A stretch of 64,000 bases of DNA, taken from Candidatus Woesearchaeota archaeon (GTDB lineage: Archaea > Nanobdellota > Nanobdellia > Woesearchaeales > JAZDKJ01). Both the position numbers and the translations under genes were made by a program. Below, piece by piece: positions 1-42,529 of the stretch (positions are counted from its first letter, which is position 1; each line of letters opens with the position of its first letter). Location: contig JAZDKJ010000006.1 of NCBI GenBank assembly GCA_043803105.1, positions 364,222-428,221 of the forward strand, given 5' to 3'. Below the pieces are notes generated by a model. It saw nothing but the letters and a program-made list of their open reading frames with translations, had not been told where the DNA came from and made no database searches.

Positions 1-738
1 CTCAAGAACTGTCCTTAGGTTTGTTCCTGCAGTGATTATTATGAACTCCGCACCCCTTTTTACTGGAAGCACCTGCCTTATGCCTTTTACTCCCTTGATA
101 TATGCCTCCTTTACCTTCTCTTTTATCTTGTATACCTCGTTCAGGTTCTCGTTCTTTTTCTTGGCTTTGACAATTATTCCGTCTTTTGCAGCCTTGACTG
201 TTCCTTCCTTTAGGCTTTTCTCAAGTACTTTTGTGACCATGCCAAGGTTTAGTCCAAGAATCGACATTTTTTCCTTGCTAAGTTTCACTTCTATTGTTGA
301 TTCTATGACATTGATTAGGAACTCCGATGCTATGTCCTTTAATTTTGTCTCTTTAAGTGAAAGCGCCAGCTCTCTTATGTCCTTGCCCTTGTTGTATGGT
401 GGTTTCAGATAGACTTCCATCATCGGCGTATCAAGCTCTTTTCTTCCGTCGAGAATCTCAATTATTCTTGGCAGGCCCATTGTGACGTTCATCTCTGCAA
501 CTCCAGCAAAGTGGAAGGTGTTGAGTGTCATCTGGGTTCCAGGTTCTCCAATCGACTCAGCCGCAATGATGCCCACGCATTCTCCTGCGTGAATCTTGGA
601 CTGCTCGTACTCCTGGTAAGTGCGCTCCACAATTTTCTTGATCCGTGCCTCGCTTGCGCCTCGCGGCATTTTCTCTTCCAGTTCCTGCAATATCTTTGGT
701 GGAAGTTTTCCGACATATCTTTTTAGTATTGGGTTCAT
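1..738 (-). CDS. rpoA2: DNA-directed RNA polymerase subunit A'' (C-terminal part of the largest subunit); N-terminal 245 aa only, runs off the window start
   Basis: ATG at 736-738 on the minus strand, 2 nt after the rpoA1 stop. The translation [79 protein letters not shown] carries the conserved [16 protein letters not shown] motif. It is not in the ORF track because no stop falls inside the window. Confidence 0.85.
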
Positions 739-740
739 TT

Positions 741-3380: not shown

Positions 3381-3384
3381 TTTC

Positions 3385-5187: not shown

Positions 5188-6671
5188 TTGATTACCTTCA
5201 GCCCCAAGCCTTTGAGTGCCTTGAGCACCTCTTCCTCGTTTGTGTCTGCCGAGACGCTTGCGAGTAGCGCAAGGTTCTTTCTTAACCCTATATTTGTTCC
5301 TTCAGGTGTCTCGATAGGGCATAGCCTTCCAAGGTGGGTGCTGTGCAGCTCCCTTGCCGCAAAGTTCTCCTGCGAGGCTGAGAGCGGGCTCACCACCCTT
5401 TGCAGGTGCGAGACTGTCTCCAGGAAGTTTAGCCTCTGAATTCTTTGGCTGATTCCCTTCCTGCCGCCTACCCAGGCTCCTGTTGCCATCGAGCTGTATA
5501 TCCTCTGGGTTAATAGCTTGTCCCTGATTATCACTTTGATGCTTGGGAATTTTCCCCTCTTTACTATTCTCTGGAAATTGTATAGTAGGTCTCCGATCAG
5601 CACTTTAAGGTTTACCCTGAATAGGTCTGCCAATAGGTCTCCTGAGCACTTGAGCCTCTTGTTCTTGTAGTGGTCCTTGTCGTCTTCCTCTACCTCTCCG
5701 TTTGACACAAGGATATATTTCTTGAGCATCTTGCAAAGGTTGTATGCTTTGTATATTCTCTCTTCTTTTTTCATTCCGATATGGGGCATCAGGTAGCGGT
5801 CAATTATCTCGGTTGTTCTTTCGATCCTGATTTCCTTTGCTTGTGTTATGCCTATCCTTTTTGCTATGAAGTCTAATGCGTCTTCACTCGTCTTTATATC
5901 TGCGAAGCTGTATAGGTTCACGACCACCTCATCGAATTGCCTCTCCTTGGATACTGACTTCATTATATCTTCATCGTTCAGGAGGCCAAGTGATTTTATG
6001 ACGATTATTAACGGAATTCTCTTAACTCTTGTAAAGGACAAATAGAAGATTCCATCCTTCATCTTTTCCAGTGTATGAGGTATCTTGTAATACCCATGCT
6101 CTGAGAATAGCTTGCCTGTGTATTCCGAAACCCCAATGTTTTGCTTCTCCACCAAAAGTTGGTTTGATGCGAGGTCTTCGACATCGATTAGTACCTTTTC
6201 TGTTCCGTTGATTATGAAATATCCTCCTGGGTCATCAGGGTCTTCACCCTTTTCTATAATCTCGTCCCTTGACATGTTGTGCAGGTGGCAAAACTTGCTC
6301 CTCAGCATGATTGGTATTGAGCCAACCTGGGTTACAAATGATTCTCTCTGCACATCATTGATATGGGCGCTTACCTCGATGAAGCATGGGCTTGCATAAG
6401 TTATCTTTCTTAGTCTTGCTTCAACAGGGTATATTGCCCTCCTTGAGCCGTCTGCTTCTGTTATCTCCGGCTTTGTGAGCCATATCTTGTCAAGCCTTAT
6501 CTTGAACTTGTCGACATTGCTTGGGATTATTGTGGGCTCTATATCTTTGTTTTCTTCTATAATCTTCTGCAGCTCGTGCTCTATAAAATAATTGTAGGAC
6601 TCTATGTCTGACTTTATGAGGGAATAGCTTTCAAAATATTTTTGTATCAGCAATTTTGCAGTGTTAACCAT
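5184..6671 (-). CDS. rpoB2: DNA-directed RNA polymerase subunit B'' (N-terminal half of split RpoB)
   Basis: 495-aa ORF with an Rpb2 N-terminal-like sequence. A split rpoB is typical of euryarchaeal-type genomes. Confidence 0.93.
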   Translation of the reverse strand: MVNTAKLLIQKYFESYSLIKSDIESYNYFIEHELQKIIEENKDIEPTIIPSNVDKFKIRLDKIWLTKPEITEADGSRRAIYPVEARLRKITYASPCFIEVSAHINDVQRESFVTQVGSIPIMLRSKFCHLHNMSRDEIIEKGEDPDDPGGYFIINGTEKVLIDVEDLASNQLLVEKQNIGVSEYTGKLFSEHGYYKIPHTLEKMKDGIFYLSFTRVKRIPLIIVIKSLGLLNDEDIMKSVSKERQFDEVVVNLYSFADIKTSEDALDFIAKRIGITQAKEIRIERTTEIIDRYLMPHIGMKKEERIYKAYNLCKMLKKYILVSNGEVEEDDKDHYKNKRLKCSGDLLADLFRVNLKVLIGDLLYNFQRIVKRGKFPSIKVIIRDKLLTQRIYSSMATGAWVGGRKGISQRIQRLNFLETVSHLQRVVSPLSASQENFAARELHSTHLGRLCPIETPEGTNIGLRKNLALLASVSADTNEEEVLKALKGLGLKVIK

Positions 6672-6906
6672 TTATCGCACATCTGTAATAGTATGATTCT
6701 CCTGCAGTGCTGCTCTTTCGCGTTATCTTGACGACATCTCTCGGCTTTAGCTTTAGATCAATTACCGCAGGATCCTTGATAAGTAGTTTTGGTAGTTCGT
6801 TCTCAGTAATGTGGAAATGCTCGAGCAGCTGTTTTTTTTCAGCCTCGCTAAGTTTTTTATGCTTAGGCACAAGAATGTGTTTGCTTATGTTGAATGATGG
6901 CTTCAT
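6664..6906 (-). CDS. rpoH: DNA-directed RNA polymerase subunit H (Rpb5 homolog)
   Basis: HILVPKHKKLSEAEKKQLLEHFHITENELPKLLIKDPAVIDLKLKPRDVVKITRKSSTAGESYYYRCAI matches the RpoH family. The internal Met (MKPSF) at 6906 is preferred as the start because the longer ORF reaching 6960 would overlap tRNA-Lys. Confidence 0.85.
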   Translation of the reverse strand: MKPSFNISKHILVPKHKKLSEAEKKQLLEHFHITENELPKLLIKDPAVIDLKLKPRDVVKITRKSSTAGESYYYRCAING

Positions 6907-6917
6907 TTTAGATTGAA

Positions 6918-7044
6918 TGGGCCGGACGAGATTTTCTTTGTTTTTTTTTCCAAGTTGCATTCGAACTCGCGACCACCTGATTGCTTTGCAGCTTAAAAGT
7001 CAGGTGCTCTATTGCCCTTATACTCCAGGCTGAGCTACCGGCCC
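6918..7044 (-). tRNA. tRNA-Lys (anticodon UUU) with three putative introns: a mini-insert in the D-loop, the canonical 37/38 site, and a site after the T-loop
   Basis: Minus strand reads GGGCCGG-TA-GCTC-AGCCTGG[AGTATAAGGGCAA]TA-GAGC-A-CCTGA-CTTTTA[GCTGCAAAGCAA]A-TCAGG-TGGTC-GCGAG-TTCGAAT[GCAACTTGGAAAAAAAAACAAAGAAAAT]CTCGT-CCGGCCC-A. The acceptor, D, anticodon and T stems all pair once the bracketed segments are removed. Confidence 0.6.
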
Positions 7045-7059
7045 ATCGTGATTGAAAAA

Positions 7060-7225
7060 CGCCCTGGTCGGGACTTCCAACAACAGACATGCCGTATGAC
7101 ATTTTCAGCTGATTTGAACCCGAGTCGAAGCCTTTTTGCGGTAGCAAACAGTAATTCAACCCTCCCTCTGGTTGAAAAGCCACCTCGACAGGGCTTCATG
7201 ATAGGCCAGACTACACTACCAGGGC
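7060..7225 (-). tRNA. tRNA-Asp (anticodon GUC) with two putative introns: the canonical 37/38 site (about 52 nt) and a site after the T-loop (about 39 nt)
   Basis: Minus strand reads GCCCTGG-TA-GTGTAGTCTGGCCTATCAT-G-AAGCC-CTGTCG[52 nt]A-GGCTT-CGAC-TCGGG-TTCAAAT[CAGCTG...GGAAGT]CCCGA-CCAGGGC-G. The D-arm resembles archaeal tRNA-Asp (GTGTAG...CCAATCAT). Confidence 0.6.
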
Positions 7226-7237
7226 TTTGACCTAGTT

Positions 7238-7250
7238 AAGCCTAATTTAA
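7238..7250 (-). promoter_or_regulatory. Putative BRE/TATA element upstream of tRNA-Asp
   Basis: Minus strand reads AAAGCTTAAATTAGG about 15-25 nt upstream of the tRNA-Asp 5' end. Confidence 0.3.
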
Positions 7251-7432
7251 GCTTTCTAGCCACCAAGCAGTCCACATAGGTCTTCTTAAGCGCATAGAAA
7301 GATTGAATTGGCATGGCCCACCTATCTTCACACCTGTTTATAAAGCTTGTGGTTTTTTCCTGACTTATTCAGGTCTGCTTGAACTTTTGCTTGATTACTT
7401 TCAAATGTTCTGCTCGAATTAAAGCGAGAATA

Positions 7433-7559
7433 TCCCCGAGGCCGGAGTCGAACCAGCAACCTTTCGGTAACGGCTGAGTGTTTTTCACATTCTGCACTGA
7501 GTGCAATATCAAAACACTATCCCTACAGCCGAACGCTCTAGCCATTGAGCTACTCGGGG
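7433..7559 (-). tRNA. tRNA-Tyr (anticodon GUA) with a canonical-position intron of about 49 nt
   Basis: Minus strand reads CCCCGAG-TA-GCTC-AATGGCTA-GAGC-G-TTCGG-CTGTAG[GGATAG...CCGTTA]A-CCGAA-AGGTT-GCTGG-TTCGACT-CCGGC-CTCGGGG-A. The C1-G72 pair is typical of archaeal tRNA-Tyr. Confidence 0.65.
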
Positions 7560-7690
7560 AAGCTTTTTTCCTTAGGAAAAAACCTTGGAAAATATGTTTT
7601 TGCCAAGGCAAAAACGCTGCCTTTAAGGCAGCTAAAGTTGCGAGCTGACTTTTCAGCTCAGCTATTGAGCTACTCAGGGATAATTCAATG
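7560..7690 (-). repeat. Structured element directly upstream of tRNA-Tyr: a near-copy of tRNA-Tyr positions 1-25 followed by a conserved hairpin and three further hairpins
   Basis: Minus strand has TCCCTGAGTAGCTCAATAGCTGAGC, matching the tRNA-Tyr 5' region TCCCCGAGTAGCTCAATGGCTAGAGC at 25 of 26 positions. This is followed by GAGCTGA-AAAG-TCAGCTC-GCAAC, then GCTGCC-TTAAA-GGCAGC, CCTTGG...CCAAGG and TTTTTTCCT-AAGGAAAAAA. Confidence 0.45.
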
Positions 7691-7777
7691 AATAACAAAC
7701 AAGGGTCTTTTTATAAACATTTCTTATCTCTGTGTGTGCTTCTTTCTTCGGAACGACTCAGAATTTTGCTATTGCTA

Positions 7778-8137
7778 TTAGTGTACAATTCTCATTTTTC
7801 CAGCCATGACTAAATTGTGCTCAATCTCTAGCTTGTTGAATCTTTTTTCCATCGCTAGGATCTTATCGACTTTTTGCTCTGTTTGCTCTACACCGTTCTT
7901 TATCTTACCTAATTTGTATGCTCCCCCGAGAATCGAAATGCCTCCTCCAAGATATGGTATCATCTCTACCCACACTGGAGAGCGCACAATTCCAAAAACC
8001 TTAAGCAGCGCCCACAGGAGTATTGCCAGTGCTCCTATGACAATCAGGGAATCCCAGAGGTCAAAACTTGCGTTGAAGAGTTTTTTTAGCTTTTGAATTG
8101 TCCTCATGCTGGCAGCAATAATAAAAAGGTCGTTCAT
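7778..8137 (-). CDS. Small membrane protein (two predicted TM helices), hypothetical
   Basis: 119-aa ORF with hydrophobic stretches LIVIGALAILLWALLKVF and GGGISILGGAY. It is the last gene of the minus-strand surface-protein operon. Confidence 0.4.
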   Translation of the reverse strand: MNDLFIIAASMRTIQKLKKLFNASFDLWDSLIVIGALAILLWALLKVFGIVRSPVWVEMIPYLGGGISILGGAYKLGKIKNGVEQTEQKVDKILAMEKRFNKLEIEHNLVMAGKMRIVH

Positions 8138-8204
8138 AAACTTTTGTCTTCGATAAATCCAGATTGTATGAATGAGCCGTAAATCTTCCGAAAGTCACAA
8201 CATC

Positions 8205-10154
8205 TTATTTCTGCGGTTCGCTCGATGTCCAGTCCTGCTTGCACATGTTGTCGATTGCAGAGTATGCAAAGCTGCCCAGAGTATAGTCGAGAAGTTTCCA
8301 TGTCAAATCTCCTGCCAGGGCCTTGTTTGCCTGCTGTTGGGCTTCCCTCTCTGCTATTGCTTTTTGCTCGGCAGGGTCATTGTATGCTCCTGCAGTCTTC
8401 GCACTCAACACACTGGCGTATACTATTCCATCCGTACCGAGCACTGTTTTTTCCCCACTTAGTGCTATCCTTTCAGACCTGATTGGCCCACCCTCATCAA
8501 ATGTGTACTCTGTAACCATGGCCCCTGCTTGTGCAATATAGGTGCTTGATATTGCTCGTGTTGGAGGTGGAAAACTTTGTGGTGTACACACAGTGGGAGG
8601 AAATCCCTGCTTGACATATGCACCGTAAGGATACTCACTGTTAGGTTCTTGGTATTGGTAGTCCTGTTGTGCAAAATAGACTTGGGTGAGTGTAGGATCC
8701 TGCGCAGCTTGGCTGGCGCTTATGTCTATGATATTTATATCCGGATATATTGTGCTTTTCCAGCAGTTGCAGTTTGTATTGAAATGGTAAGAACCTTCTG
8801 ATGCTATGCTTGATATCTTCCCGTTATACCCGTTTTGGGTTAGGTCAGTTTGGAGTGTAAGATAGCTCATCCCTGATTTTAGGAGAGGGGTGTTGCCCCC
8901 AGCCACAATATAGTAACTGTATTTACCTTCCTTGTCAGTTGCAGATTGGCTATCAATTTTGCTTATTATTATCTGCCCCTTGTTCCCGTCAAAAACAACC
9001 CCTGCCTTCACATCATCAACCGTAACTGAAGGTTTGACTACCTGTCCGTTCTTCGCTACCCCATCATACATTTTGTCTCCATTCTTGTCAACCAATCTGT
9101 AATTATAGGGCACGGGTCTTCCAGACAACCTGTTCTTTATGTCCTCAAAGTGCAGGTCAGTGCATGTTGGTTCATTAAAGCTCGTTGACATCCAGTTCCA
9201 TGACTCTGTTACCTGTGATATCATTCCAGGAATGTTGGTGAGCTCCATCAATTTCAATACGCATTTTGGTATGGCTGCCTGCTTGATGATTTCTCCCAGC
9301 TGGCTTGCAAGGTATTTTGCCAGGATTGACATAAGTATCTTAGCCACAGTCTTTAGTATAGAACCTTTCCAGTACATGCACAGCGCTTCATCTAGTTGTT
9401 TCTCGCATGCCTCTGTTGATATTCCTGCGGTGCACGCCTGTTCGATGCAGCAATTATACACCTGGTAGATTGTCTTGAGCTTTCTTATGTTAAATAGTAT
9501 TGCAACTGGGCACAGGCAGTAAGTTGCAGTGTAGATGTTCTCATAAGGATTCAGGTGGAAATCTCCGATAGCCAGGTTTCCGTACCCTCCGCCTGTTGTT
9601 GTCTTTCCAACTCCAACCGTGTTGCTCAGGCTTTCAGAGTTCTGTCCTAGCACCGGCACGTTCTTCACTATTCCTCCGCATCCAAACTTTCCTGTGCACC
9701 AGCCGCAGCTTACAAGACAGCACAATCCCTGCACTACCGGCAATTTGTACACGCTAGACCATGCCTTAAACACTTTTTGCATTGCTATGCAAAGTTTGGT
9801 GCCAGTGAGTAGTCCAAGCAGGCAGCAGTCCCCTGCCTCGTCTCCTGAGAACCCTATTAAGCTTGATATTGCCGATAGCACGATGTCTATGGCGCTCATT
9901 ACAGTGCATATCATGAGCATTATTGACGCTACGCTCTCAAGCGTTCCTATTACTCCATTGTCAAGCGAGTCAGCTATGCCTGAGCTTTTCTTGTGCTTCT
10001 CAATGCACTGCTGTCCAGCCTCAAGGTCTGTTGTGCCAGTTTCCTCTGTTGCCTTACCAGTAACTGGATTTACCTCTGCAAATGCGATTGAAGTGCAAAA
10101 TGGGATGCTGATTATGAGAAAGATTAGGATTTTGGCTACTTGCTGTTTTATCAT
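8205..10154 (-). CDS. Secreted cysteine-rich protein, hypothetical (Sec signal peptide, 649 aa)
   Basis: N-terminus MIKQQVAKILIFLIISIPFCTSIAFA|EV looks like a Sec signal peptide with an AFA cleavage site. It has many Cys pairs (CC, CxC) and no recognisable catalytic motif. Confidence 0.6.
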   Translation of the reverse strand: MIKQQVAKILIFLIISIPFCTSIAFAEVNPVTGKATEETGTTDLEAGQQCIEKHKKSSGIADSLDNGVIGTLESVASIMLMICTVMSAIDIVLSAISSLIGFSGDEAGDCCLLGLLTGTKLCIAMQKVFKAWSSVYKLPVVQGLCCLVSCGWCTGKFGCGGIVKNVPVLGQNSESLSNTVGVGKTTTGGGYGNLAIGDFHLNPYENIYTATYCLCPVAILFNIRKLKTIYQVYNCCIEQACTAGISTEACEKQLDEALCMYWKGSILKTVAKILMSILAKYLASQLGEIIKQAAIPKCVLKLMELTNIPGMISQVTESWNWMSTSFNEPTCTDLHFEDIKNRLSGRPVPYNYRLVDKNGDKMYDGVAKNGQVVKPSVTVDDVKAGVVFDGNKGQIIISKIDSQSATDKEGKYSYYIVAGGNTPLLKSGMSYLTLQTDLTQNGYNGKISSIASEGSYHFNTNCNCWKSTIYPDINIIDISASQAAQDPTLTQVYFAQQDYQYQEPNSEYPYGAYVKQGFPPTVCTPQSFPPPTRAISSTYIAQAGAMVTEYTFDEGGPIRSERIALSGEKTVLGTDGIVYASVLSAKTAGAYNDPAEQKAIAEREAQQQANKALAGDLTWKLLDYTLGSFAYSAIDNMCKQDWTSSEPQK

Positions 10155-10156
10155 TT

Positions 10157-12328
10157 CTAACTTACCTCTGGCGCAACAAACTGTGAATAATCGTTAACTG
10201 TGTAATCTACCTGTTTTGTCTTGCCGTCGCAGTTATCATCGACAGTGATCTTTCCGCTTAGCCTGCTGCCATCAATGACTGTCTCAGTGATGCTGTTTAC
10301 CTCAAGGTTCTGGTCTGAGAGGAAATCCACCATGCAGTAGAATTTTATTTTGCTGCCCCTTAGGCTGGTTGCTTTCCATCCAAAGTTCCCGTTGCCAATT
10401 ATCCAAGGTCCTTCGTAGTTGGAATGCGTCAAGGGATTGTTGTCAAAGTCCACTGTCACTGTGTTGTCTCCTTCTTTATAGGTTGAGGGCTTTATGACCA
10501 CGTTGCCTTTGGCCAGCATTCCCACCCGATAGTTTCCGCTTCCTATTATCATGCTCTTCATTGTTGGGTATAGGACAGTAGGGTTTGCAGACGCCCCGTT
10601 TATTGATATTGTTATCTCGTCTTTTGGCCTTGGCTGGTAGCGTGTTTCCTGCAACATTTCTTCAGGTGTTTTTCCGCAGCTGCTTCGTAAATATCCATTT
10701 GTCAGATAATAGTTCTCCAGGAATTTTCTTGCAAGCACAAGCTCCACTTCAATGCTGTAATTCTTCAGTTTCTCCAGTTTGTATTCGCTTTTTACAGCAT
10801 CAACAATCGTGCTGTAACCTGCCTTCTGCAACTTAAGCTGGAGCCCTGCGCATTTCGGCAGCTTTAAGGAGGCTCTGCCGCTGGAGGCTGTCTCTCCTGC
10901 ATCGCATTCGTTGATTGTGTTGTTGCATTGGAATCTGACACCAACTCCAGGCAATAATCCTGTTTCATTCGTTGTGACTACACTAGCCTGCGTGCTTACG
11001 TTGTTGCAGTCAAAGACACTTTTCATGGTCTCGCTTCCGAAAAATGCTGTCAGGTTCACTTCGCTATATGGATTCTGTCCAGTGCACTGCCTGTTCTGGT
11101 TTCCGCACAGGAAGAGTTGCATCGGGAAATAAAACGAGAAGCCCTGTTTTTCCTGCACCAAATTACCAATAATCTTGGCAGAATCGCTGTCTGTGATTTT
11201 TATCACCACAGGATGTGTCAAGAAGTACTTGAACCTGTAATCATAAATGCAGAAGCTTGGGAGGAATGGTATGCTTGTCTGCGATTCCTTGTCCGGGCTA
11301 ATCACGTTGCCGCTTGTGGGTTTGATGTCAAATTTGTTATCTGATTGTGCAGGGTAACTGAATTCTACGCTTATTGAGCTAAGATTTTCGAAATAATTCC
11401 TGATAAAGCTGTCATAAACTCCCTGGACTGAAGCGTCGTTTGAAATCACTCTTTCAAACTTTGTTCCGGCCATCTTTAGGTATGGAAAATTTTTTGAAAG
11501 TATGCCTTCAAGATTTTCCTTGACTTCATCTTTCGTCCATGTTACGTATTTGCAATCTGTGCTTGAGTCAGAGAAGCTGAACGGCGGAAGGTCTTTTGCT
11601 CCCTTTTCTGCCCCGGTATAGCTGTACAGAGAAATCAGTGACTTTGCGTGGTCTTCAAGATAAGTGTCTGCAAACTCTCTTGTGACTAATTCCATAGCTA
11701 TCTCATGGATCAGCGCCAGGTTTACATCCACCTGATAATTGTAGTTGTCCACTTCATACTGTTTTTCGTTCTGTGTGATCTGGATTGGCCAGTGAAGATC
11801 AATTGTTGCCTGTTTGCCGAACCTCACTGTGGTGTTTATTGTTCCAGTCTTGATAACATAACTTTTTTTTCTGAAGACCTCAAAGTCCGTGCATCTCGGC
11901 AGGTTTTCTGTGATGTATCTAGCTAGCTCATTTTGCATGTAATCTGTTGAAGGTACAGAAATCGAATCTTCGGTGATCCAGTAAGGGACCTTGTTCTTTC
12001 CTGTGGCGTCAATAACCTGAATCATGCTCCCAGTTTTAACCACAGTCCTATCGCCGCTTATGCCTGTTGTTTGTAGCTCGGTAGGAATGTATATGAACCC
12101 CGCCTGAAGCCCAAGGATTTCTATTCCTGAATTTGCATAATCACTTAGACACTGTTCCACATATGTCTTAACCTGTTGAGCAGGCTCTGCAAGTTGTAAT
12201 GCCCTTACCTGTTCGACCTGGATTGGCTGCTCTGTTGTTCTTGCCCAGCTAAAGTAGAAGATTGCCGCAGCTATCAGCATGATTATTCCGATGATTATGA
12301 ATATGGTTATCTGTCCTCTTTTTTCCAT
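10157..12328 (-). CDS. Large (723 aa) surface protein with an archaeal type IV pilin-like (class III) signal peptide
   Basis: N-terminus MEKRG|QITIFIIIGIIMLIAAAIFYF has a basic residue, then Gly at -1 and Gln at +1, then a roughly 20-residue hydrophobic helix. That is the archaeal prepilin-peptidase substrate pattern. The mature part is a large Ser/Thr/Asn-rich extracellular domain. The gene ends in TAG and overlaps the downstream gene start. Confidence 0.6.
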   Translation of the reverse strand: MEKRGQITIFIIIGIIMLIAAAIFYFSWARTTEQPIQVEQVRALQLAEPAQQVKTYVEQCLSDYANSGIEILGLQAGFIYIPTELQTTGISGDRTVVKTGSMIQVIDATGKNKVPYWITEDSISVPSTDYMQNELARYITENLPRCTDFEVFRKKSYVIKTGTINTTVRFGKQATIDLHWPIQITQNEKQYEVDNYNYQVDVNLALIHEIAMELVTREFADTYLEDHAKSLISLYSYTGAEKGAKDLPPFSFSDSSTDCKYVTWTKDEVKENLEGILSKNFPYLKMAGTKFERVISNDASVQGVYDSFIRNYFENLSSISVEFSYPAQSDNKFDIKPTSGNVISPDKESQTSIPFLPSFCIYDYRFKYFLTHPVVIKITDSDSAKIIGNLVQEKQGFSFYFPMQLFLCGNQNRQCTGQNPYSEVNLTAFFGSETMKSVFDCNNVSTQASVVTTNETGLLPGVGVRFQCNNTINECDAGETASSGRASLKLPKCAGLQLKLQKAGYSTIVDAVKSEYKLEKLKNYSIEVELVLARKFLENYYLTNGYLRSSCGKTPEEMLQETRYQPRPKDEITISINGASANPTVLYPTMKSMIIGSGNYRVGMLAKGNVVIKPSTYKEGDNTVTVDFDNNPLTHSNYEGPWIIGNGNFGWKATSLRGSKIKFYCMVDFLSDQNLEVNSITETVIDGSRLSGKITVDDNCDGKTKQVDYTVNDYSQFVAPEVS

Positions 12329-15964: not shown

Positions 15965-16195
15965 ATGCCTATGATGTATGATTATGGTTACGGCCATGGA
16001 TGGGGATCCTTCGGAGCCTTTTGGATGATAGTCTTTTGGGCTGCATTGATTTGGTTTATTGTCTGGCTCGTAAGGAGGAGCGATTGGCACTCGATGCGCG
16101 GCACAGAATCCTTAGAGATTGTAAGGCAAAGATACGCAAAAGGAGATATAACCAAGAAGCAGTTTGATGAGATGAAAAAGGACCTTAATGGTTAA
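15965..16195 (+). CDS. SHOCT-domain membrane protein
   Basis: Gly/aromatic-rich N-terminus, one TM helix and a C-terminal RYAKGDITKKQFDEMKKDL (SHOCT-like). A GAGGTGA ribosome-binding site lies upstream. Confidence 0.55.
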   Translation: MPMMYDYGYGHGWGSFGAFWMIVFWAALIWFIVWLVRRSDWHSMRGTESLEIVRQRYAKGDITKKQFDEMKKDLNG

Positions 16196-19049
16196 TTCTT
16201 TGCTTGACCAGTTCTGATAACTCTTTCGGCCATTTTTCAATCTCAGATTTTTTCTTTCTTAAGAATTCAATAAATCCATCTTTAACTTCCCTTCCTTCTA
16301 TCATTTCTGCCAATTGTTCCTTCTCTGTTATTGAAAGCCCCTCGATGTTCCATGCTTGCATCTTAAGGCTGTCGATTTTGTCTTCTTTTTCTGCCTCAAG
16401 TTTTTCTTCCTGCTCTATCCAAAGCTCTTCATAGCTCTTGATTTTGTTCTCTGGCTGCTTCTTTCCCTGTTTCAAAGATATTTTTGCCAGTACCATCTCG
16501 TGCATTCTTTTCAGGAACTCCATCCTGTCCTCGATTTTCAACAGGTCTGTGTAGCCCTGCACTATGAGGTTGAAGGCGAACGGGCTTGGCACTGTTGTTG
16601 CGTATTGCTGGATCTTTATCTTGCCATCTTCGATTTGCTTTAGCACAATGCTTGCGCTTTTTTCGTCCATCAGGTCTTCAAGCACCTCTCTTCGTGCCTC
16701 TTCGAGTATCGGAAATCTTGGGTTTATCCTCCTTACAGCGCTTATAAGTATTGTGGATGATACTTGCTGTCTCCCCACCCTTTGCGTCCTTCCCTTATAT
16801 TGCCTTAGTATCATTAATGCCCTTGTTGCGCAGTGCCTAAACCTTCTTTTCAGTACCTCGCTCGTTTCTATTGCGTTTCTTAACACCAGGTCCAGCTTTT
16901 CTGATTTCAATAGCTCAAAGGCCTTCATCACATTGACCTTCTGATTGGTCATCAGGTAGAATCCATTGTCGTTGATTCCTACTGAAACATCCCTGTGGCT
17001 AACCCTTGATACTGCAAATCCTACCGCCCTTGATAGTGCGTCGTTTACCCTTCTCCCAAACAGGCTGTGCAGCAGGTAGTATGTTTGCTTGCCGTCGTTG
17101 TAGGTTTCCATGATTATTGACTTGTCTGTTGGTATTTCCAGGTACTCTGCCTGTTCTTTGAAATAATTGTATAATGCTTTCGCTGCTTTGCTGTCCACGT
17201 AAAGGTACTGGTTGATGAAGCCCATAACCTCTTCCTCGTTCTGCCTGGCTGAAAATTTCTCTTTGATTAATCTCCTGAATCTGCCTATTTCTAAAGCAAG
17301 GTCAAAGCTTAATGGCAGCATCTCTGAGAACCATGATGGTATTGTTGGCGGCCTATACACTGATGTTCTCACGTACGCAACCATGCCCTTTGCGTACAGG
17401 AACTCATATTTTTCCCCTCCCAAGACAAATACGTCTCCCTTTTTTAGCCTTTCAAGGAAAGCCTCGTCTATCTGTCCTATTGCCTGCTCACCTATCTTCA
17501 CTGTTATGTACATCTCGTCTGGTATCGTTCCTATGTTTGTCATGTAGATTACCCTGCCGAGCCTTCCTTTTTTCCCTATCATATTGCTTTCAGGGTCATA
17601 CCATATCTTTGCGTAGATGTGCCTGTCTTCGAGCGATGTGAACTTTCCCGCAAGGTATTGGAGTATATCGATGTAGTCCTTTCTTTGCAGGTCTTTGAAC
17701 GGGTAGCTCTGCTTGATTATTTTGAAAAGCTCGTCAACATTCCATTTCTGCTCTAAGGCAAAACCATCTATCTGCTGTGCAAGCACGTCAAGGCAGTTTG
17801 TTGGCAGGTGTATCTTGTCAATCTTTTTCTCTATTGCGCACTTTAGCAATACTGAGCATTCCACCAGGTCGTCCCTGTCAAGCACTATTATCCTTGCCTT
17901 GACCTTGTCGTGCAGTTTGTGTCCTGACCTTCCTGCTCTCTGAAGAAATCTTGCTACTGACTTTGGCGAGCCAAGGCAGATTACAAGGTCTATGTATCCT
18001 ATGTCTATGCCAAGCTCCAGGGAGGTGCTTGACACAATGACCTTGAGCTCTCCATTTCTTAGTCTGGTTTCTATGTCATGCCTGAGTGTTTTCGACAATG
18101 ACCCATGGTGCGCTCCTATGTTTGAGGTGTACTTTTGCGGCCACCTGTCCTTGAGATGGTCGATTACTCTCTCTGTTGCCGACCTTGTGTTTGTAAATAT
18201 GAGTGTTGTCCTATGGCTTTGCACCAGGTTGTCTATGAGCTCATACATTTTCTGGTGCATTACGCTGTGAGGCGTGCTTATCAGGTCTTCAACTGGTGAC
18301 ATTACTTTCAGGTCCATTTCCTTTAGGAATTGCACGTCTGCTATTTTGCAGTCTCTTGGTTTATCATCCTTGAAGCCTACCAGGAACAATGCAATCTCTT
18401 CTAATGGTGCGATTGTTGCGGAGAGGCCTATCCTTGTCATGTGCGGAGATAAGTAGTCAAGCCTTTCCAAAGACAATGATAAATGAACACCCCTCTTGTT
18501 CTCCGCTAACGCATGTATTTCGTCTACTACACACCACTCCACTGCCTTGAGGTGGTCCCTAAACTTAGGTGAGGTCAGCATGATGGCAAGGCTTTCAGGT
18601 GTTGTGATCAATATGTGCGGCGGCTTCCTTAGCATCTTTTGCTTTTCCGCTGTCGTTGTGTCTCCTGTCCTGACCCCTACTCTTATCCCAAGCTTTTTTC
18701 CTGCAGCCTCTTCCATTTCTTTCAAAGGTTCCACAAGGTTGTGCTGGATGTCGTTTCCGAGTGCCTTTAGCGGGCTCACGTAAACGCAGTAGATTTTATC
18801 CTGCAAAATTTCCTTTTGGGAGGAGTCTATTAGCTCGTTCAGAATCGATAGAAATGCTGTAAGTGTCTTTGTCGCTCCTGTCGGAGCGCTGACTAGGATG
18901 TTTGCCCTGGAGTGTATCTCCATCACCCCAAAGAGCTGCGGCAGTGAGAACTTCTCGAATTTCTTGAAGAACCATTCCTTAACGATTGGATTGAGGATTT
19001 GTTTCAGTTCTTCTTCAGTATTGGCTTTAACCTTATGCTCTATCATCAA
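16185..19049 (-). CDS. lhr: Lhr-type large ATP-dependent helicase (superfamily 2)
   Basis: 954 aa with a Walker A (SAPTGATKT), a DEIH box (VVDEIHAL) and a SAT-like motif. The domain order and length match archaeal Lhr. Confidence 0.85.
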   Translation of the reverse strand: MMIEHKVKANTEEELKQILNPIVKEWFFKKFEKFSLPQLFGVMEIHSRANILVSAPTGATKTLTAFLSILNELIDSSQKEILQDKIYCVYVSPLKALGNDIQHNLVEPLKEMEEAAGKKLGIRVGVRTGDTTTAEKQKMLRKPPHILITTPESLAIMLTSPKFRDHLKAVEWCVVDEIHALAENKRGVHLSLSLERLDYLSPHMTRIGLSATIAPLEEIALFLVGFKDDKPRDCKIADVQFLKEMDLKVMSPVEDLISTPHSVMHQKMYELIDNLVQSHRTTLIFTNTRSATERVIDHLKDRWPQKYTSNIGAHHGSLSKTLRHDIETRLRNGELKVIVSSTSLELGIDIGYIDLVICLGSPKSVARFLQRAGRSGHKLHDKVKARIIVLDRDDLVECSVLLKCAIEKKIDKIHLPTNCLDVLAQQIDGFALEQKWNVDELFKIIKQSYPFKDLQRKDYIDILQYLAGKFTSLEDRHIYAKIWYDPESNMIGKKGRLGRVIYMTNIGTIPDEMYITVKIGEQAIGQIDEAFLERLKKGDVFVLGGEKYEFLYAKGMVAYVRTSVYRPPTIPSWFSEMLPLSFDLALEIGRFRRLIKEKFSARQNEEEVMGFINQYLYVDSKAAKALYNYFKEQAEYLEIPTDKSIIMETYNDGKQTYYLLHSLFGRRVNDALSRAVGFAVSRVSHRDVSVGINDNGFYLMTNQKVNVMKAFELLKSEKLDLVLRNAIETSEVLKRRFRHCATRALMILRQYKGRTQRVGRQQVSSTILISAVRRINPRFPILEEARREVLEDLMDEKSASIVLKQIEDGKIKIQQYATTVPSPFAFNLIVQGYTDLLKIEDRMEFLKRMHEMVLAKISLKQGKKQPENKIKSYEELWIEQEEKLEAEKEDKIDSLKMQAWNIEGLSITEKEQLAEMIEGREVKDGFIEFLRKKKSEIEKWPKELSELVKQRINH

Positions 19050-29580: not shown

Positions 29581-29637
29581 TCACTGGTCGGCTCTGTACA
29601 ATAATCAAGGAGCAGTACACTTGACCTTACAATCATT

Positions 29638-29710
29638 GGGGCTGCGGGGGAGCTGCGAAGTCAGCTCGCACCTTCGTGGGACATAAAGTCCCCCTGACAT
29701 CACAATCAAT
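29638..29710 (+). repeat. Leader element of tRNA-Pro: an imperfect copy of the tRNA-Pro 5' end followed by a conserved hairpin
   Basis: GGGGCTGCGGGGGAGC matches tRNA-Pro GGGGCTGTGGGGTAGC at 14 of 16 positions. This is followed by GAGCTG-CGAAG-TCAGCTC-GCACC, the same hairpin family as in the tRNA-Tyr leader, and then a GGGAC-ATAAA-GTCCC hairpin. Confidence 0.45.
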
Positions 29711-29827
29711 GGGGCTGTGGGGTAGCTTGGTCTAGCCTATCTGGTTTGGGGCAATGCAAAAAACCAGATGACCCCGGTTCGAAAGTTTTATAAAAGGCTG
29801 ATTAACTCGAAAATCCGGGCAGCCCCA
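29711..29827 (+). tRNA. tRNA-Pro (anticodon UGG) with two putative introns: the canonical 37/38 site (12 nt) and a site after the T-loop (about 30 nt)
   Basis: GGGGCTG-TG-GGGTAGCTTGGTCTAGCCTA-TCTGG-TTTGGG[GCAATGCAAAAA]A-CCAGA-TGAC-CCCGG-TTCGAAA[GTTTTATAAAAGGCTGATTAACTCGAAAAT]CCGGG-CAGCCCC-A. Confidence 0.6.
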
Positions 29828-38942: not shown

Positions 38943-39188
38943 ATTCTCTGCATATTTTGGGCTGTATTTAAAGGTTTTCAGGATACAAGGAAAGTTAGGA
39001 TTTCATGTCCTTTTGTAATTTCTTCAGAAGGCAATCCACACCTTGTAATATATTATCTTCTTGAGGTTTTCAATATCGATAAATTTTGCGCCCGGTCAGG
39101 GATTTTCACTTGATGAGATTTGAACTGTCAGAAATTCACTGAATTTCTGAGCATGCTCGGAAACATAGTTTCCGACACCTGGAGACCT

Positions 39189-39250
39189 GTGATGGTCAAT
39201 TGCTTTTCAGGCAACCGCGATACCCGATTACGCTAGCCCGGCCTCGCACA
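39189..39250 (+). repeat. Repeat unit U1 of the tyrS-flanking repeat family
   Basis: GTGATGGTCAATTGCTTTTCAGGCAACCGCGA... parallels U3 at 41121 (GTGATAGTTGCTTCAGGCAACCGAGCGA). The flanking GATTACGC(T/G)AGCCC motif recurs at 39376. Confidence 0.35.
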
Positions 39251-39453
39251 TTTCTAAATTGACCTGAACCTTAATATGTTCAATTGAGAATTTTCCGTAA
39301 GTTCTGCGACAAAACCGAGCAAAATCTTATATACCAGAATGCTTACAAACTTTATGACCTGCGATTTAATTACCTGATTACGCGAGCCCTTTTTATATAG
39401 TATTTTCTGTAGATTTGACCAATGGCTCAAGTAGCCTTGGCCAGAAATAAAAT

Positions 39454-39655
39454 GGGGCTGCTGGGATTTCCATGCTTCTAGGACGGTCTTTTGGCATCAG
39501 CCAAAAGCCTTTTCCCAGGTTTTTGCATATTGCAAAAAGCTGTTTGGACCCAGATTAGGAGGTTTTCCGCTGAAAACCTTAGGTCAAATGCCCCGAACCT
39601 CCAGTGATAGTTTCTCGAAGAGTTTCTCTCTTCTCCAAGTTACACTACAGCCCCA
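39454..39655 (+). repeat. About 200-nt highly structured element with tRNA-Pro-like termini (GGGGCTGC... / ...CACTACAGCCCCA); candidate ncRNA or disrupted tRNA-Pro-derived element
   Basis: Starts GGGGCTGCTGGG, like the tRNA-Pro 5' end, and ends CAGCCCCA, like the tRNA-Pro 3' end. Internal perfect hairpins include TTTTGGC-ATCA-GCCAAAA, TTTTTGCA-TAT-TGCAAAAA and AGGTTTTC-CGCT-GAAAACCT, with an outer CTGGGA...TCCCAG stem. The 3' part carries repeat unit U2 (GTGATAGTT...CCAAGTTACACTACAGCCCCA). Confidence 0.4.
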
Positions 39656-39855
39656 TAGGTTGAACTGGAAAGCCACACTGTTGTATGACCTTCCTATAAC
39701 TGCTAAACAGCAGGGTGTTAAAAAGGTTGCGATGGAACGTAACGATGTGATATATTAGAATTTTATGTGCCTCTTACCCTTCAGCAATGTGCAGATTCTG
39801 CTAATTAAATTTATATATAAAGAACTGTTTTATTGTTGCAATCGCTTGCATCACT

Positions 39856-40989
39856 ATGGATAACAGAGCAAAATTTGAACTTATAACGAGAAATTTAGAA
39901 GAAGTACTAACACCTGCAGATTTAATGAAACTCATTGAAAATGATGAGCCTTTAAAGCATTATATTGGTTTTGAAATAAGTGGTAAGGTGCATCTTGGAA
40001 CTGGACTTATGTGTATGTCCAAAATTAAAGACTTCATGGATGCAGGTGCGGATGTTTCTGTGTTTCTTGCTGACTGGCATAGTTGGATTAATGATAAACT
40101 TGGTGGAGACAGAGAAGTTATCAAAAAAATTGCCGTCGGATATTTCAAAGAAGCGATGAAGGCTAGCCTTCTTTGTCTTGGTGGTAATCCTGAAAAAATA
40201 AGATTTGTACTTGGTACAGAACTTTATCACAATAATGACGATTATTGGGCAACCATGATTGATGTAAGTAAAAATACGACTCTAGGCAGGATGACTCGGA
40301 GCATTACAATCCTTGGAAGAAAAGAAGGGGAGGGAGTTGATTTTGCAAAATTGATCTATCCTGCAATGCAGGTTTCAGATATTTTTGTTCAGAAATTGAA
40401 CATACCTCATGCAGGAATTGATCAAAGGAAAGCGCAAGTTATTGCAAGAGAAGTTGCTTTAAAAATGAAAGTAAGTCAAATTACTGATAAAGAGGGTAAT
40501 AAAATTAAACCCGTTGCCCTGCATCATCATCTGTTACTAGGTCTTGGCAAACCCCCGGTATGGCCTGTTCCTCAAGATAAATTACAGGATTTATGGTCAT
40601 CAATGAAGATGAGCAAGTCCAAGCCGGACACTTGTGTTTTTGTTCACGATAGTCCTGATGAAATTAAAAGAAAGATTGCAAAGGCATTCTGCCCTGAAGG
40701 TGAAACTGTGTTCAATCCAGTACTTGATTGGGCTAAATATTTATTGTTCAGAGAGACGACTGATGAACTTATAGTAAAAAGGCCTGAAAAATTCGGTGGA
40801 ACTGTTATATATACAACTTACGAAAAACTTGAAAAAGATTTTGCAGACAAAAAAGTTCATCCAATGGACCTTAAAGATTCAGTTGCTGAAAGTTTAATTA
40901 AACTACTTGAACCTGCAAGAATCCATTTTGAAAAACCTGAAATCAAAAAGACGTTGGATCAGCTTAACAAGCTCATAACCACAAGGTGA
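39856..40989 (+). CDS. tyrS: Tyrosyl-tRNA synthetase (archaeal type)
   Basis: 377 aa with a HIGH-like region (GKVHLGTG) and a KMSKS motif (KMSKSKP). The overall pattern is archaeal TyrRS. Confidence 0.9.
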   Translation: MDNRAKFELITRNLEEVLTPADLMKLIENDEPLKHYIGFEISGKVHLGTGLMCMSKIKDFMDAGADVSVFLADWHSWINDKLGGDREVIKKIAVGYFKEAMKASLLCLGGNPEKIRFVLGTELYHNNDDYWATMIDVSKNTTLGRMTRSITILGRKEGEGVDFAKLIYPAMQVSDIFVQKLNIPHAGIDQRKAQVIAREVALKMKVSQITDKEGNKIKPVALHHHLLLGLGKPPVWPVPQDKLQDLWSSMKMSKSKPDTCVFVHDSPDEIKRKIAKAFCPEGETVFNPVLDWAKYLLFRETTDELIVKRPEKFGGTVIYTTYEKLEKDFADKKVHPMDLKDSVAESLIKLLEPARIHFEKPEIKKTLDQLNKLITTR

Positions 40990-41120
40990 TTTTATTCCTT
41001 TTTGTATGTTTATTCTAGATAGTTAATATTAGAATACAAAATTTCAGGATTAGCCTAAAATGTTTTATGCTTCTTTTCGAATTCCGGTCGGACGCATTCT
41101 GGTTTCATCCTCAAGCGTAA

Positions 41121-41184
41121 GTGATAGTTGCTTCAGGCAACCGAGCGAACTGGTTGGCGCTGGCCAAGTTACACTACAGCCCCG
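41121..41184 (+). repeat. Repeat unit U3 (GTGATAGTT ... CCAAGTTACACTACAGCCCCG)
   Basis: Shares a 20-nt identical 3' block, CCAAGTTACACTACAGCCCC, with 39636-39654, and shares the 5' GTGATRGT...TTGCTT(TT)CAGGCAACCG module with U1. Confidence 0.4.
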
Positions 41185-41220
41185 TTGATTGTTATTGTTT
41201 CGCGAAGCTCACAAGAAACC

Positions 41221-41331
41221 TGATAGTTTCTTGGGAGTCCCAAAAAACTTCAAGTTTTTTGTGACGAAAGGCGACTGAAAGGAGTGTAAAGGTGCCAGCT
41301 GACTTCTCAGCTGAGTAGCACTACAGCCCCA
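41221..41331 (+). repeat. Repeat unit U4 (TGATAGTTTCT ... hairpin ... GAGTAGCACTACAGCCCCA)
   Basis: Begins TGATAGTTTCT as U2 does. It contains a CAGCTGA-CTTC-TCAGCTG hairpin, related to the tRNA-leader hairpin family, followed by GAGTAGC as in the tRNA-Tyr 5' region. It ends CACTACAGCCCCA. Confidence 0.4.
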
Positions 41332-41374: not shown

Positions 41375-41920
41375 TTGCCAAGCTTTTTAAGGGTTTTAGA
41401 TACTCCGTCCTGCATGGAGAGGGCACCACAGCAAAAACCTAGCCGTGAGTTGTTGATAGAAAAATTCCTCCAGGACAACCAGTTTAATCTCGAAGATGTG
41501 ATATCCAAGGACGAGATTTTCCAAAGCGCGAATGACCTTGCTTCAGCTATATACAAGAAGAGACCATCATACATAACCTTCAAGGATTATAATTTAGGTA
41601 TAACAAGCAGGTTTCCACAGACACCAGAATTTGAGGTCATGATGCTTTACCAGGTCCACGAGACTGCTTTGAAGTTCAAGCAGCAAGGATACAACGAACT
41701 TAGCTGGAACCAGCTTAAATCAGCATACCTAAAAGTCCACTTACAATCAAGGCATGACGCTGCTGGACGCCATGCCAGGTACAACTCACATTTTCCAAAA
41801 GCCCCAAAAGAGTTTGTTAGAGGCAAACATCCTGTGCACAGCATGCTGCTTACCTTGGACAGCATGGCTGTAGATATACTCCTCCATTATGCCACTTTGC
41901 GAATATACAAGAAAAGATAG
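41375..41920 (+). CDS. Hypothetical protein (181 aa; start may be the internal MERAPQQ)
   Basis: ORF only. Confidence 0.4.
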   Translation: MPSFLRVLDTPSCMERAPQQKPSRELLIEKFLQDNQFNLEDVISKDEIFQSANDLASAIYKKRPSYITFKDYNLGITSRFPQTPEFEVMMLYQVHETALKFKQQGYNELSWNQLKSAYLKVHLQSRHDAAGRHARYNSHFPKAPKEFVRGKHPVHSMLLTLDSMAVDILLHYATLRIYKKR

Positions 41921-41926
41921 AAAATA

Positions 41927-42529
41927 TTGGTCTGGCAGAAAATATTAAATAGTTGCGTTTCAGGTTCATTGTTTATGGACAAGCTGGAACAGGCAGGTTT
42001 CTTCCAGGCAGCGCTTATCAATCTATTGCTTGGAAACTTTATACTTGGCGGGCTTCTGGCGTCGATTTTCTTTCTTTTCTTTGAAGCTATTATTGTGCAA
42101 TTTATTTGTATAGCATTAGTTGGCTTATACAGTGGTTGGCTGACAATCTCTGTGATGGCCGGCTTTGAAATGAACTCAAGCCAAAAAGTCCTTGCAGGAG
42201 CGCTTTGCCCTATTCCTGTTGTTTGCCTGTTATTTGTCGAGCAATTCATTTTCAGCAGGCTTGGAGCACAGCTTCAGATGCTTGGAGCCCCTGTGCAGAG
42301 CACTGCTGCATCAATTTCGAATATTTTTGGCCATCCCTCTCTGCAGGTCACCATTATCTTCATTTCTGTCTACTATCTTGCATTCAATTTCTTTGCGATA
42401 CGGGAGATTGACCGAGCAAAACAATTCAGTTCTTTAGGTTGGTACTCATTCGGCTTGATTTTGTTGACATTGATTGTTCTATTAGCAAGGTTCCTGGCTG
42501 CATCAGTCACCGGTGCCAAAGTGTCCTGA
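41927..42529 (+). CDS. Integral membrane protein, hypothetical
   Basis: 200 aa with 5-6 hydrophobic helices. Confidence 0.45.
   Translation: MVWQKILNSCVSGSLFMDKLEQAGFFQAALINLLLGNFILGGLLASIFFLFFEAIIVQFICIALVGLYSGWLTISVMAGFEMNSSQKVLAGALCPIPVVCLLFVEQFIFSRLGAQLQMLGAPVQSTAASISNIFGHPSLQVTIIFISVYYLAFNFFAIREIDRAKQFSSLGWYSFGLILLTLIVLLARFLAASVTGAKVS

Follow-up and report, generated by a model that had tools for sequence, protein, structure and literature searches.

Four degenerate repeat units (U1 to U4) lie around the tyrS gene of a Candidatus Woesearchaeota archaeon (contig JAZDKJ010000006.1, positions 364,222 to 428,221). From one strand alone they had been taken for small mobile repeats or for tandem small RNA (sRNA) genes. 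We have analysed the window (the whole 64-kb stretch, part of a 542-kb source contig) and find that the cluster consists of intron-split tRNA genes and tRNA gene fragments, a case of the tRNA gene disruption already known from archaea. On the minus strand, U2, U3 and U4 are the 5' thirds of tRNA genes (acceptor strand, D arm and D-loop intron). U2 lies within an intact gene, while the remaining units are truncated. We favour, with a probability of about 0.7, the explanation that these are minus-strand tRNA genes of a Woesearchaeota (DPANN) genome, interrupted by bulge-helix-bulge (BHB) introns. U2 would be the intact gene, U3 and U4 paralogous fragments and U1 an unrelated piece, the extra copies would be debris of duplication and recombination, and a short hairpin module found with them would be the core of a proliferating intron family.

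The repeats as tRNA genes

The four units lie where the sequence-only reading had placed them. It described them on the wrong strand: their meaning is visible on the minus strand only. The 20-mer CCAAGTTACACTACAGCCCC is identical at 20 of 20 positions between U2 (39635-39654) and U3 (41164-41183; blastn-short against the window, E = 4.7e-5), and CACTACAGCCCC occurs three times in the window (39643 in U2, 41172 in U3 and 41319 in U4) as against no occurrence in 100 shuffles. In the minus-strand reading, AACTATCA is present in U2, U3 and U4, and the common block becomes GGGGCUGUAGUGUAACUUGG. It comprises the 5' strand of an acceptor stem, then U8-A9, one strand of a D-stem and the first part of a D-loop that includes G18-G19. 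On this strand GTGATAG becomes CUAUCAC, the 3' strand of a D-stem.

This block had been thought common to all four units. It is indeed shared by U2, U3 and U4; U1 lacks ACACTACAGCCCC and has ACGCTAGCCCGGCC as its end, and is a different, tRNA-Phe-like piece unrelated to the block. The 5' module proposed for U1 and U3 does exist as a match of 12 out of 12 (TTCAGGCAACCG) which, taken alone, is within chance (E = 2.8, blastn-short). U2, U3 and U4 are a true paralogous family, and the tie of this family to a hairpin module near tRNA-Tyr and at 29638 stands. Identity with C/D or H/ACA RNAs, which had also been considered, is not supported by covariance-model search: no such family matches the units. 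The Rfam matches to C/D families are far under threshold and located elsewhere, and no sRNA or ribozyme family is found at the units or at the module.

U2 is part of a gene with three BHB introns (Table 1). BHB candidates were required to have two 3-nt bulges on either side of a central helix of 4 bp, and every splice combination was given to ARAGORN. Across the span 39440-39670 just 2 of 3578 splice variants yield a tRNA, and ARAGORN calls the three-intron variant tRNA-Pro(cgg). Default ARAGORN and Rfam miss all of the units because of the introns.

The orthologous tRNA-Pro(CGG) gene is present in a related locus (L115:4419-4606), between g3714 and a gene of 411 amino acids. This locus is 85% identical to window 39734-39592 over 143 nt, which cover the 5' flank and the first exons, and exon 1 is identical. 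The ortholog has no anticodon intron: its DNA carries GGAGGUUCGGGACCUCC without interruption, and this is the junction predicted for U2. Introns are found in its D-loop and T-loop at the same positions as in U2 and with different sequences. The two deduced mature tRNAs differ solely at position 55 (UCCAAAU in U2, UUCAAAU in L115). On the evidence of this ortholog we identify U2 with high confidence as a tRNA-Pro(CGG) gene, resident and functional-looking as judged from its sequence. The introns that differ or are absent between the two genes point to rapid intron turnover. The mature tRNA is predicted to arise when the splicing endonuclease cuts the three BHB motifs and the exons are ligated.

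Truncated and chimeric copies

U3 is identical to U2 in its first 20 nucleotides and in AACUAUCACU, and has a D-loop insert of 38 nt. It has an anticodon arm of its own (UACGC-UUGAGG..GCGUC) and a degenerate T arm. Homology ends near 41046, with neither an acceptor 3' strand nor CAGCCCCA, and in the alignment AAUCC..GCAGCCCCA is lacking. Exon 1 and the first bases of the D-loop insert match the L115 tRNA-Pro(CGG) at 96% over 27 nt, reaching into the D-loop intron of the latter. In its 5' flank (ACAAUCAAC) U3 matches the flank of tRNA-Pro(UGG), and the remainder of the insert is similar to the D arm and the anticodon arm of U1 (a segment of about 30 nt is like the U1 anticodon arm). With these mixed matches to U2, to L115, to the tRNA-Pro(UGG) flank and to U1, U3 is a chimera.

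U4 starts with GGGGCUGUAGUG, a 12-nt copy of the tRNA 5' end seen in U2 (41330-41319). Next come the hairpin module (41314-41265), then AAGAAACUAUCAG and finally a hairpin of the form GUUUC..GAAAC, after which U4 terminates at the 5' flank of U3. AAGAAACUAUCAG resembles the end of the U2 D-loop intron together with the D-stem 3' strand, and over 40 nt the module has 82% identity with the copy that the tRNA-Pro(CGG) gene of L115 carries in its T-loop intron. A BHB candidate in U4 (GUGC/GCAC around hairpin 1, the first of the two module hairpins) does not occur in other module copies and was judged to be due to chance.

U1 includes an acceptor strand (GCCGGGC), a D arm and an anticodon arm (GUUGC-CUGAAAA-GCAAU), followed by AUCAC. 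The 3' piece located at 39089..39125 offers ACCGGGC, which fails to pair with the U1 acceptor strand (a mismatch at 2 of 7 positions). GCGTAATC is present twice, in support of a partial copy of the U1 5' part at 39360..39388.

No tRNA results from any strict-BHB splicing of U1, U3, U4 or their joined combinations (ARAGORN), and a relaxed BHB listing gave candidates at chance level only. Acceptor 3' strands for U3 and U4 were not found in the window, the sole CAGCCCC nearby on the minus strand being that of U2. The internal segments of U1, U3 and U4 have no homologs among all fetched loci. We read the three units as truncated or chimeric copies; most likely they are non-functional by-products that would be transcribed as leader sequence.

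A hairpin module in tRNA loops and at tRNA ends

What looks mobile in this window is the hairpin module rather than the repeat unit. The U4 hairpin CAGCTGACTTCTCAGCTG is real, and so is its proposed connection with 7560 and 29638. Three perfect copies of AGCTGNNAAGTCAGCT exist (7643-7658 and 41297-41312 on the minus strand, 29651-29666 on the plus strand), and a covariance model of the module gives three matches of 36-39 bits in the window, with everything else at 11 bits or less. Upstream of tRNA-Tyr, of tRNA-Pro(UGG) and of U3 there is a decayed copy of the 5' flank and 5' end of the respective tRNA itself, then SAGCUG-NNAAGU-CAGCUS (hairpin 1), GCAMCUU and a second hairpin (hairpin 2). According to the covariance model, the U4 module has lost hairpin 2.

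Conserved residues have changed in the upstream tRNA copies (U8 to C; G18 to A), and the downstream genes retain both. Judged by eye, splicing an upstream copy onto its downstream tRNA is possible for tRNA-Pro(UGG) only (by way of a palindromic AGCU), and the product loses G18. A filter for a spliceable BHB joining the upstream copies of the window to the downstream tRNA passed no candidate.

An exact-pattern scan of metagenome contigs yielded 33 loci, 12 of which were used to build the covariance model. Run on the fetched loci, the model gives 41 matches, including diverged copies that the pattern had missed, such as those in four tRNA genes of locus L104. The module is present in 35 or more metagenomic loci, which all seem to derive from Woesearchaeota-like DPANN archaea. 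It is absent from the other tyrS loci of DPANN and Asgard archaea (L001-L080; 595 kb), among which there is also no conserved tRNA adjoining tyrS. Hairpin 2 shows compensatory changes in all seven main-helix pairs, with 93.6% of cells paired. Its covariation score, in an alignment that had been fitted to the model, is 0.396; shuffles give 0.114 (none of 500 attains the observed value) and slid partners 0.06 at most. Resemblances of the module to hammerhead ribozymes, K-turns, C/D RNAs, anticodon arms, the 16S 3' end or IS200/IS605/omega-RNA were noted by eye only and are unsupported.

The module is found in three contexts. In the first, it is the core of BHB introns at T-loop position 59/60 or in the D-loop, and starts 1-2 nt past the 5' splice site. 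This was verified for tRNA-Gly(UCC) (D-loop) and for tRNA-Ser(CGA), tRNA-Val(UAC) and tRNA-Pro(CGG) (T-loop); further tRNAs, one of them Ala-like and located in an rRNA spacer, belong here by sequence. In a 10-kb stretch of locus L104, four tRNA genes (477-537, 2910-2970, 9753-9814 and 9986-10047) carry the module in a T-loop 59/60 intron, and most tRNAs of that genome may be interrupted at this site. Some module introns have a 3' end that can be paired with hairpin 1 (h' up to 8 bp). Where repeats flank the module, they vary from 12 to 52 nt.

In the second context, the module lies antisense and 3' of a complete tRNA, bordered by a direct repeat of 19-52 nt that extends from the T-loop to a few nucleotides past the 3' end. 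In four of these loci (L083, L087, L094 and L103) a clean BHB, with an outer helix of 5 bp and a central helix of 4 bp, links the distal repeat to the complete gene at its T-loop, so that the whole block, roughly 100 nt long, is a spliceable intron in its own right, one that starts with a copy of the 3' exon. In the third context, which includes all three copies of the window, the module is in sense orientation, 5' of a tRNA and after a copy of its 5' end. An arrangement seen in L088 and L093 (module at 46-100 and 1144-1191), where the antisense module abuts +1 of a tRNA-like 5' end (GGGCCCAUAGCUCAGCC...) with no flanking repeat, would be a fourth.

The module occurs in homologous introns of different tRNA isoacceptors and at different positions, which is what is expected of a proliferating intron family. 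At the orthologous tRNA-Pro(CGG) locus it is inside the T-loop intron of L115, while the T-loop intron of U2 is module-free and the U4 module lies about 1.7 kb upstream. These positions are direct evidence for relocation or turnover of the module at a single orthologous locus. As far as our searches of the literature show, a covarying hairpin and intron family with three insertion modes is undescribed.

Three further observations concern the module loci. Locus L099 has tandem modules (1135-1183 and 1251-1299) with a period of 116 nt, each after the same 20-nt segment (ATGGACCAGTAGCTCTGCAC). In L084 (275-1150) an open reading frame (ORF) with a LAGLIDADG domain is located about 450 nt from a module copy. 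In L097 an archaeal 23S rRNA match (7999-11734) spans 3.7 kb as compared with the 2987 positions of the model, and contains large insertions.

The tyrS segment

The nearest relatives by aIF5B show about 72-73% identity (none above 73%), L115 being at 72%. Contigs L114 and L115 keep the gene order NFACT, HIT/DcpS, HIT, g2928 ... aIF5B ... PUA. At the site in question L115 has the tRNA-Pro(CGG) gene, and tyrS, U3 and U4 are absent. The suggestion that this locus is a recombination or gene-order break point is thereby supported.

The tyrS product is 96% identical in amino acids (94% in nucleotides) to that of another Woesearchaeota metagenome-assembled genome (MAG), L001, in which 3982-5161 corresponds to window 39837-41018. 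Homology stops within 20-30 nt of the tyrS ORF and nothing else is in common; L001 was therefore rejected as a close relative for comparison. In L001 the archaeal-type tyrS is back to back with a bacterial-type tyrS. Its context in L001 and its absence from L115 together place tyrS in a variable segment specific to this lineage, with the intact tRNA-Pro(CGG) gene at one end and fragments of that gene at the other. A copy identical at 94-96% in L001, set beside aIF5B relatives at 73% or less, suggests recent horizontal exchange of the archaeal-type tyrS, and on these identities a recent transfer is plausible.

Pfam matches near the insert are limited to tyrosyl-tRNA synthetase (TyrRS), aIF5B, HIT and PUA, and the neighbouring small ORFs have none. 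Between U4 and the g2928 homolog there are two ORFs (181 and 200 amino acids, 41375-42529) with no Pfam match and no counterpart in L115. They belong to the same variable segment as tyrS.

tRNA genes in the remainder of the window

Standard tools recover few of these genes. Default ARAGORN reports no tRNA in the window. With the intron option (-i) it finds tRNA-Tyr, together with a dubious tRNA-Arg inside an ORF. Only tRNA-Tyr passes the Rfam gathering and E-value thresholds, and the tRNA match at U1 is below threshold. BHB enumeration recovers tRNA-Pro(UGG) and tRNA-Asp(GUC) as multi-intron genes, so the genome is rich in such genes. This load fits a Woesearchaeota (DPANN) origin; tRNA gene disruption is increased in DPANN lineages (PMC5829648). 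Since standard finders report almost no tRNAs in such genomes, both the tRNA complement and the completeness estimates of DPANN MAGs are biased.

Table 1. Features of the window: tRNA genes, tRNA gene fragments, module copies and tyrS.
Feature	Position	Strand	Description and evidence
U2, complete tRNA-Pro(CGG) gene	39453..39654	-	Three BHB introns; BHB splicing and ARAGORN; L115 ortholog
U2 D-loop intron	39633-39612 (or ~39634-39611)	-	Central helix 4/4; outer helix weak (relaxed form)
U2 anticodon 37/38 intron	39591-39564	-	Central helix UUCG/CGGA, 4/4; outer helix 5 bp
U2 T-loop 59/60 intron	39542-39467	-	Central helix UCCA/UGGA, 4/4; T stem is the 5-bp outer helix
U3, 3'-truncated chimeric tRNA-like copy	41046..41183	-	Alignment with U2; 5' end 41183
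U4, tRNA 5'-end copy fused to hairpin element	41185..41330	-	Repeats, exact copies, covariance model
U1, tRNA-Phe(GAA)-like 5' part	39176..39242	-	Rfam tRNA 22.3 bits (gathering score 29)
Partial copy of U1 5' part	39360..39388	-	GGGCUCGCGUAAUCAGGUAAUUAAAUCGC; directly 3' of TATA-like box
T-arm/acceptor-like 3' piece	39089..39125	-	GUUCAAAUC..16-nt insert..CCCUG ACCGGGC G
tyrS (archaeal-type TyrRS)	39856..40989	+	Between U3 and intact tRNA-Pro(CGG); Pfam tRNA-synt_1b
Partial copy of tRNA-Tyr 5' end/D arm (7679-7660) and module (7660-7612)	7612..7679	-	Sequence, covariance model
tRNA-Tyr(GUA)	7433..7559	-	Anticodon-loop intron 54-57 nt; Rfam 54.6 bits; ARAGORN -i
Partial copy of tRNA-Pro(UGG) 5' flank/5' end (29629-29650) and module (29649-29698)	29629..29698	+	Sequence, covariance model
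tRNA-Pro(UGG)	29711..29827	+	Introns 29751-29762 (37/38) and 29784-29813 (T-loop 59/60); BHB enumeration
tRNA-Asp(GUC)	~7225-7060	-	Introns in anticodon loop and T-loop; BHB enumeration

The tRNA-Asp(GUC) gene (7060-7225, minus strand) is unannotated and is missed by both ARAGORN and Rfam. The same applies to a tRNA-like, Lys-like gene just 3' of it (from about 7042 downward, minus strand), which reads GGGCCGGUAGCUCAGCCUGG..., has a D-loop insert and carries the anticodon arm CCUGA-CUUUUAA. The relaxed-intron ARAGORN call of a tRNA-Arg(CCG) with a 197-nt intron (18205-18476, minus strand) lies within an ORF of 954 amino acids (16185-19049) and is probably a false positive. In positions 1-12000 the AT skew is strongly negative (-0.17 to -0.32), coincident with a run of long minus-strand ORFs.

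Discussion

tRNA genes are a classical recombination hot spot. We infer that the extra copies are by-products of DNA-level duplication or recombination at a tRNA gene, and that the module is the core of an intron family proliferating in the T-loops and D-loops of the tRNA genes of this lineage. The fragments would then be linked to the gain, loss and movement of this family, and tyrS would lie within a variable segment made by the same events. Where the module is outside the mature tRNA and bordered by a duplicated tRNA end, an intact copy of the tRNA would always be kept, presumably by selection.

Several points weigh against this explanation. Two concern U2 itself: its T-loop (39543-39549, minus strand) reads UCCAAAU, with a C where U55 (pseudouridine) is nearly universal, and the outer helix of its D-loop BHB is weak, leaving two options for the splice register. 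Others concern the module. The invariance of hairpin 1 is partly an ascertainment effect, the loci having been retrieved by exact pattern. The viral contigs searched contain no module, and no integrase, transposase or reverse transcriptase was found near the module copies of 10 to about 16 long loci, where the genes beside the module are housekeeping genes. Finally, the 3' partners of U1, U3 and U4 could lie elsewhere on the 542-kb contig, of which 64 kb were analysed, and these units may yet be functional.

The alternative that comes closest is that the locus is the footprint of an integrase, a tyrS island having entered the 5' part of tRNA-Pro(CGG) and left U3 (and U4) as an attL/attR-type repeat with the module as a conserved arm. 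We consider it unlikely. It would account for direct repeats of a tRNA end (20 nt) that bracket a 1.5-kb insert absent from the syntenic L115, for a tyrS with a 96% copy in an unrelated context of another MAG when aIF5B relatives reach at most 73%, and for a repeat geometry, from the loop to beyond the gene end, that is the geometry of tRNA att sites; there is also the precedent of Caldiarchaeum (PMC3293823). Against it, the ancestral 5' flank of U2, which matches L115, runs 80 nt upstream and the junction is therefore not at the repeat, and U3 goes on past the repeat, with an anticodon arm and a T arm of another kind. A housekeeping gene is the only cargo, no recombinase is present within the insert or beside the 10 to about 16 long module loci, and viral contigs are devoid of the module, most loci of which are plain introns without repeats.

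The repeat boundaries, from the loop to just past the gene end, are compatible with att-type recombination and equally with intermediates derived from RNA processing. It is distinctly unlikely, in our estimate, that the module goes further and is an autonomous-looking mobile intron of DPANN archaea, one that targets tRNA loops and spreads by way of RNA processing intermediates, with duplicated tRNA ends as its insertion signature. Such an element might use endonuclease cuts and the ligase, or might employ the adjoining tRNA segment in a guide-like manner. If this were true, it would provide a direct and still active route to non-canonical tRNA introns and to split tRNA genes.

U1, U3 and U4 could also be functional 5' pieces of split, trans-spliced tRNAs, with 3' pieces elsewhere and an intermolecular BHB as in Nanoarchaeum and Caldivirga. 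The host belongs to the DPANN archaea and is heavily loaded with non-canonical introns, U3 ends near the T-loop 59/60 intron site, TATA-like boxes precede U4 and the upstream fragment near U1, and the 3' strand is absent locally. This is nevertheless improbable, given that the anticodon arms are unfit for a common Pro-type acceptor stem (U3 has GAG, and the loop of U4 is irregular, with 13 nt) and that the U3 T arm is degenerate (CCGGAAUUCGAAA; 3' strand CCUG). The copies upstream of tRNA-Tyr and tRNA-Pro(UGG) have lost U8 and G18 in front of intact genes, and no complementary leader or trailer was found within the 64-kb window. Least credible of all is a functional small RNA made up of the module as scaffold and the adjoining tRNA segment as a tRNA-matching 'guide' or decoy, for, even if tRNA-gene-derived sequence stands directly 5' of the module in every context, compensatory changes maintain hairpin 2 and at one position a U-G wobble predominates (12 of 12; 18 of 35 in the wider set), favouring one strand in either tRNA orientation, no associated protein gene is known, the module is simply excised as an intron in most loci, and the tRNA segments are variable (12-52 nt) and decayed in the window, where the U4 module has no hairpin 2.

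With intron-split tRNA genes and their duplication debris as the preferred explanation, the window bears on the origin of odd-position introns and of tRNA breakage in archaea, an open question for which there are few examples caught in the act. Together with its relatives it forms a compact series: one tRNA-Pro(CGG) ortholog has different introns in two genomes, the same core recurs in many tRNAs and also beside duplicated tRNA ends, where it is sometimes spliceable, and truncated copies mark a break that includes an aminoacyl-tRNA synthetase gene.

Relation to other disrupted tRNA genes and small elements

Multi-intron archaeal tRNA genes with non-canonical BHB introns are found in Thermoproteales, Thaumarchaeota and DPANN (PMC4090602, PMC4390854, PMC5829648). 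U2, tRNA-Pro(UGG) and tRNA-Asp are of this type: they hold two or three introns (37/38, D-loop, 59/60) with the arrangement 3-nt bulge, 4-bp helix and 3-nt bulge, and are missed by standard finders. They differ in that the T-loop and D-loop introns in relatives have a common, covarying two-hairpin core, which here also occurs outside the tRNA body, by duplicated ends.

Fujishima et al. (Mol Biol Evol, 2010) reportedly described homologous introns in different Thermoproteales tRNAs and positions, implying intron spread. Intron transposition among Thermoproteales tRNAs is also cited in PMC4390854. The present case is similar in that module introns are homologous across tRNA species and positions. 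It differs in its host (Woesearchaeota), in the sequence family concerned and in the antisense forms that start with a 3'-exon copy (L083, L087, L094 and L103).

In Caldiarchaeum subterraneum a 5' fragment of tRNA-Thr came to lie upstream of the complete gene through integration of a mobile element (Sugahara et al. 2012, PMC3293823). The mechanism that we propose for the window is close to this model, where recombination at the end of a tRNA also alters its introns, and to the Thermoproteales intron transposition. Here, too, a tRNA 5' fragment lies 1.5-1.8 kb upstream of a complete gene that has gained or changed introns, at a locus that varies between close genomes. The Caldiarchaeum insert has a recombinase and resembles a pNOB8-type plasmid, whereas ours contains tyrS alone and its fragment is chimeric.

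Split and tri-split tRNA genes are known from Nanoarchaeum equitans and Caldivirga maquilingensis (PMC3218864). Our units share with them stand-alone 5' pieces with promoter-like boxes, several of which have one and the same acceptor/D-arm sequence. They depart from them in the lack of a 3' partner or complementary leader or trailer in the window and in anticodon arms that are implausible as isoacceptors.

In its general appearance the module is reminiscent of miniature inverted-repeat transposable elements (MITEs) or solo remnants: it is short (about 60-100 nt), hairpin-rich and non-coding, and is present in multiple copies (up to 4 per 10 kb) between housekeeping genes. Unlike MITEs, its target is always a tRNA loop or tRNA end, the duplications are variable (12-52 nt) rather than fixed and short, and many of its copies are precisely spliceable BHB introns.

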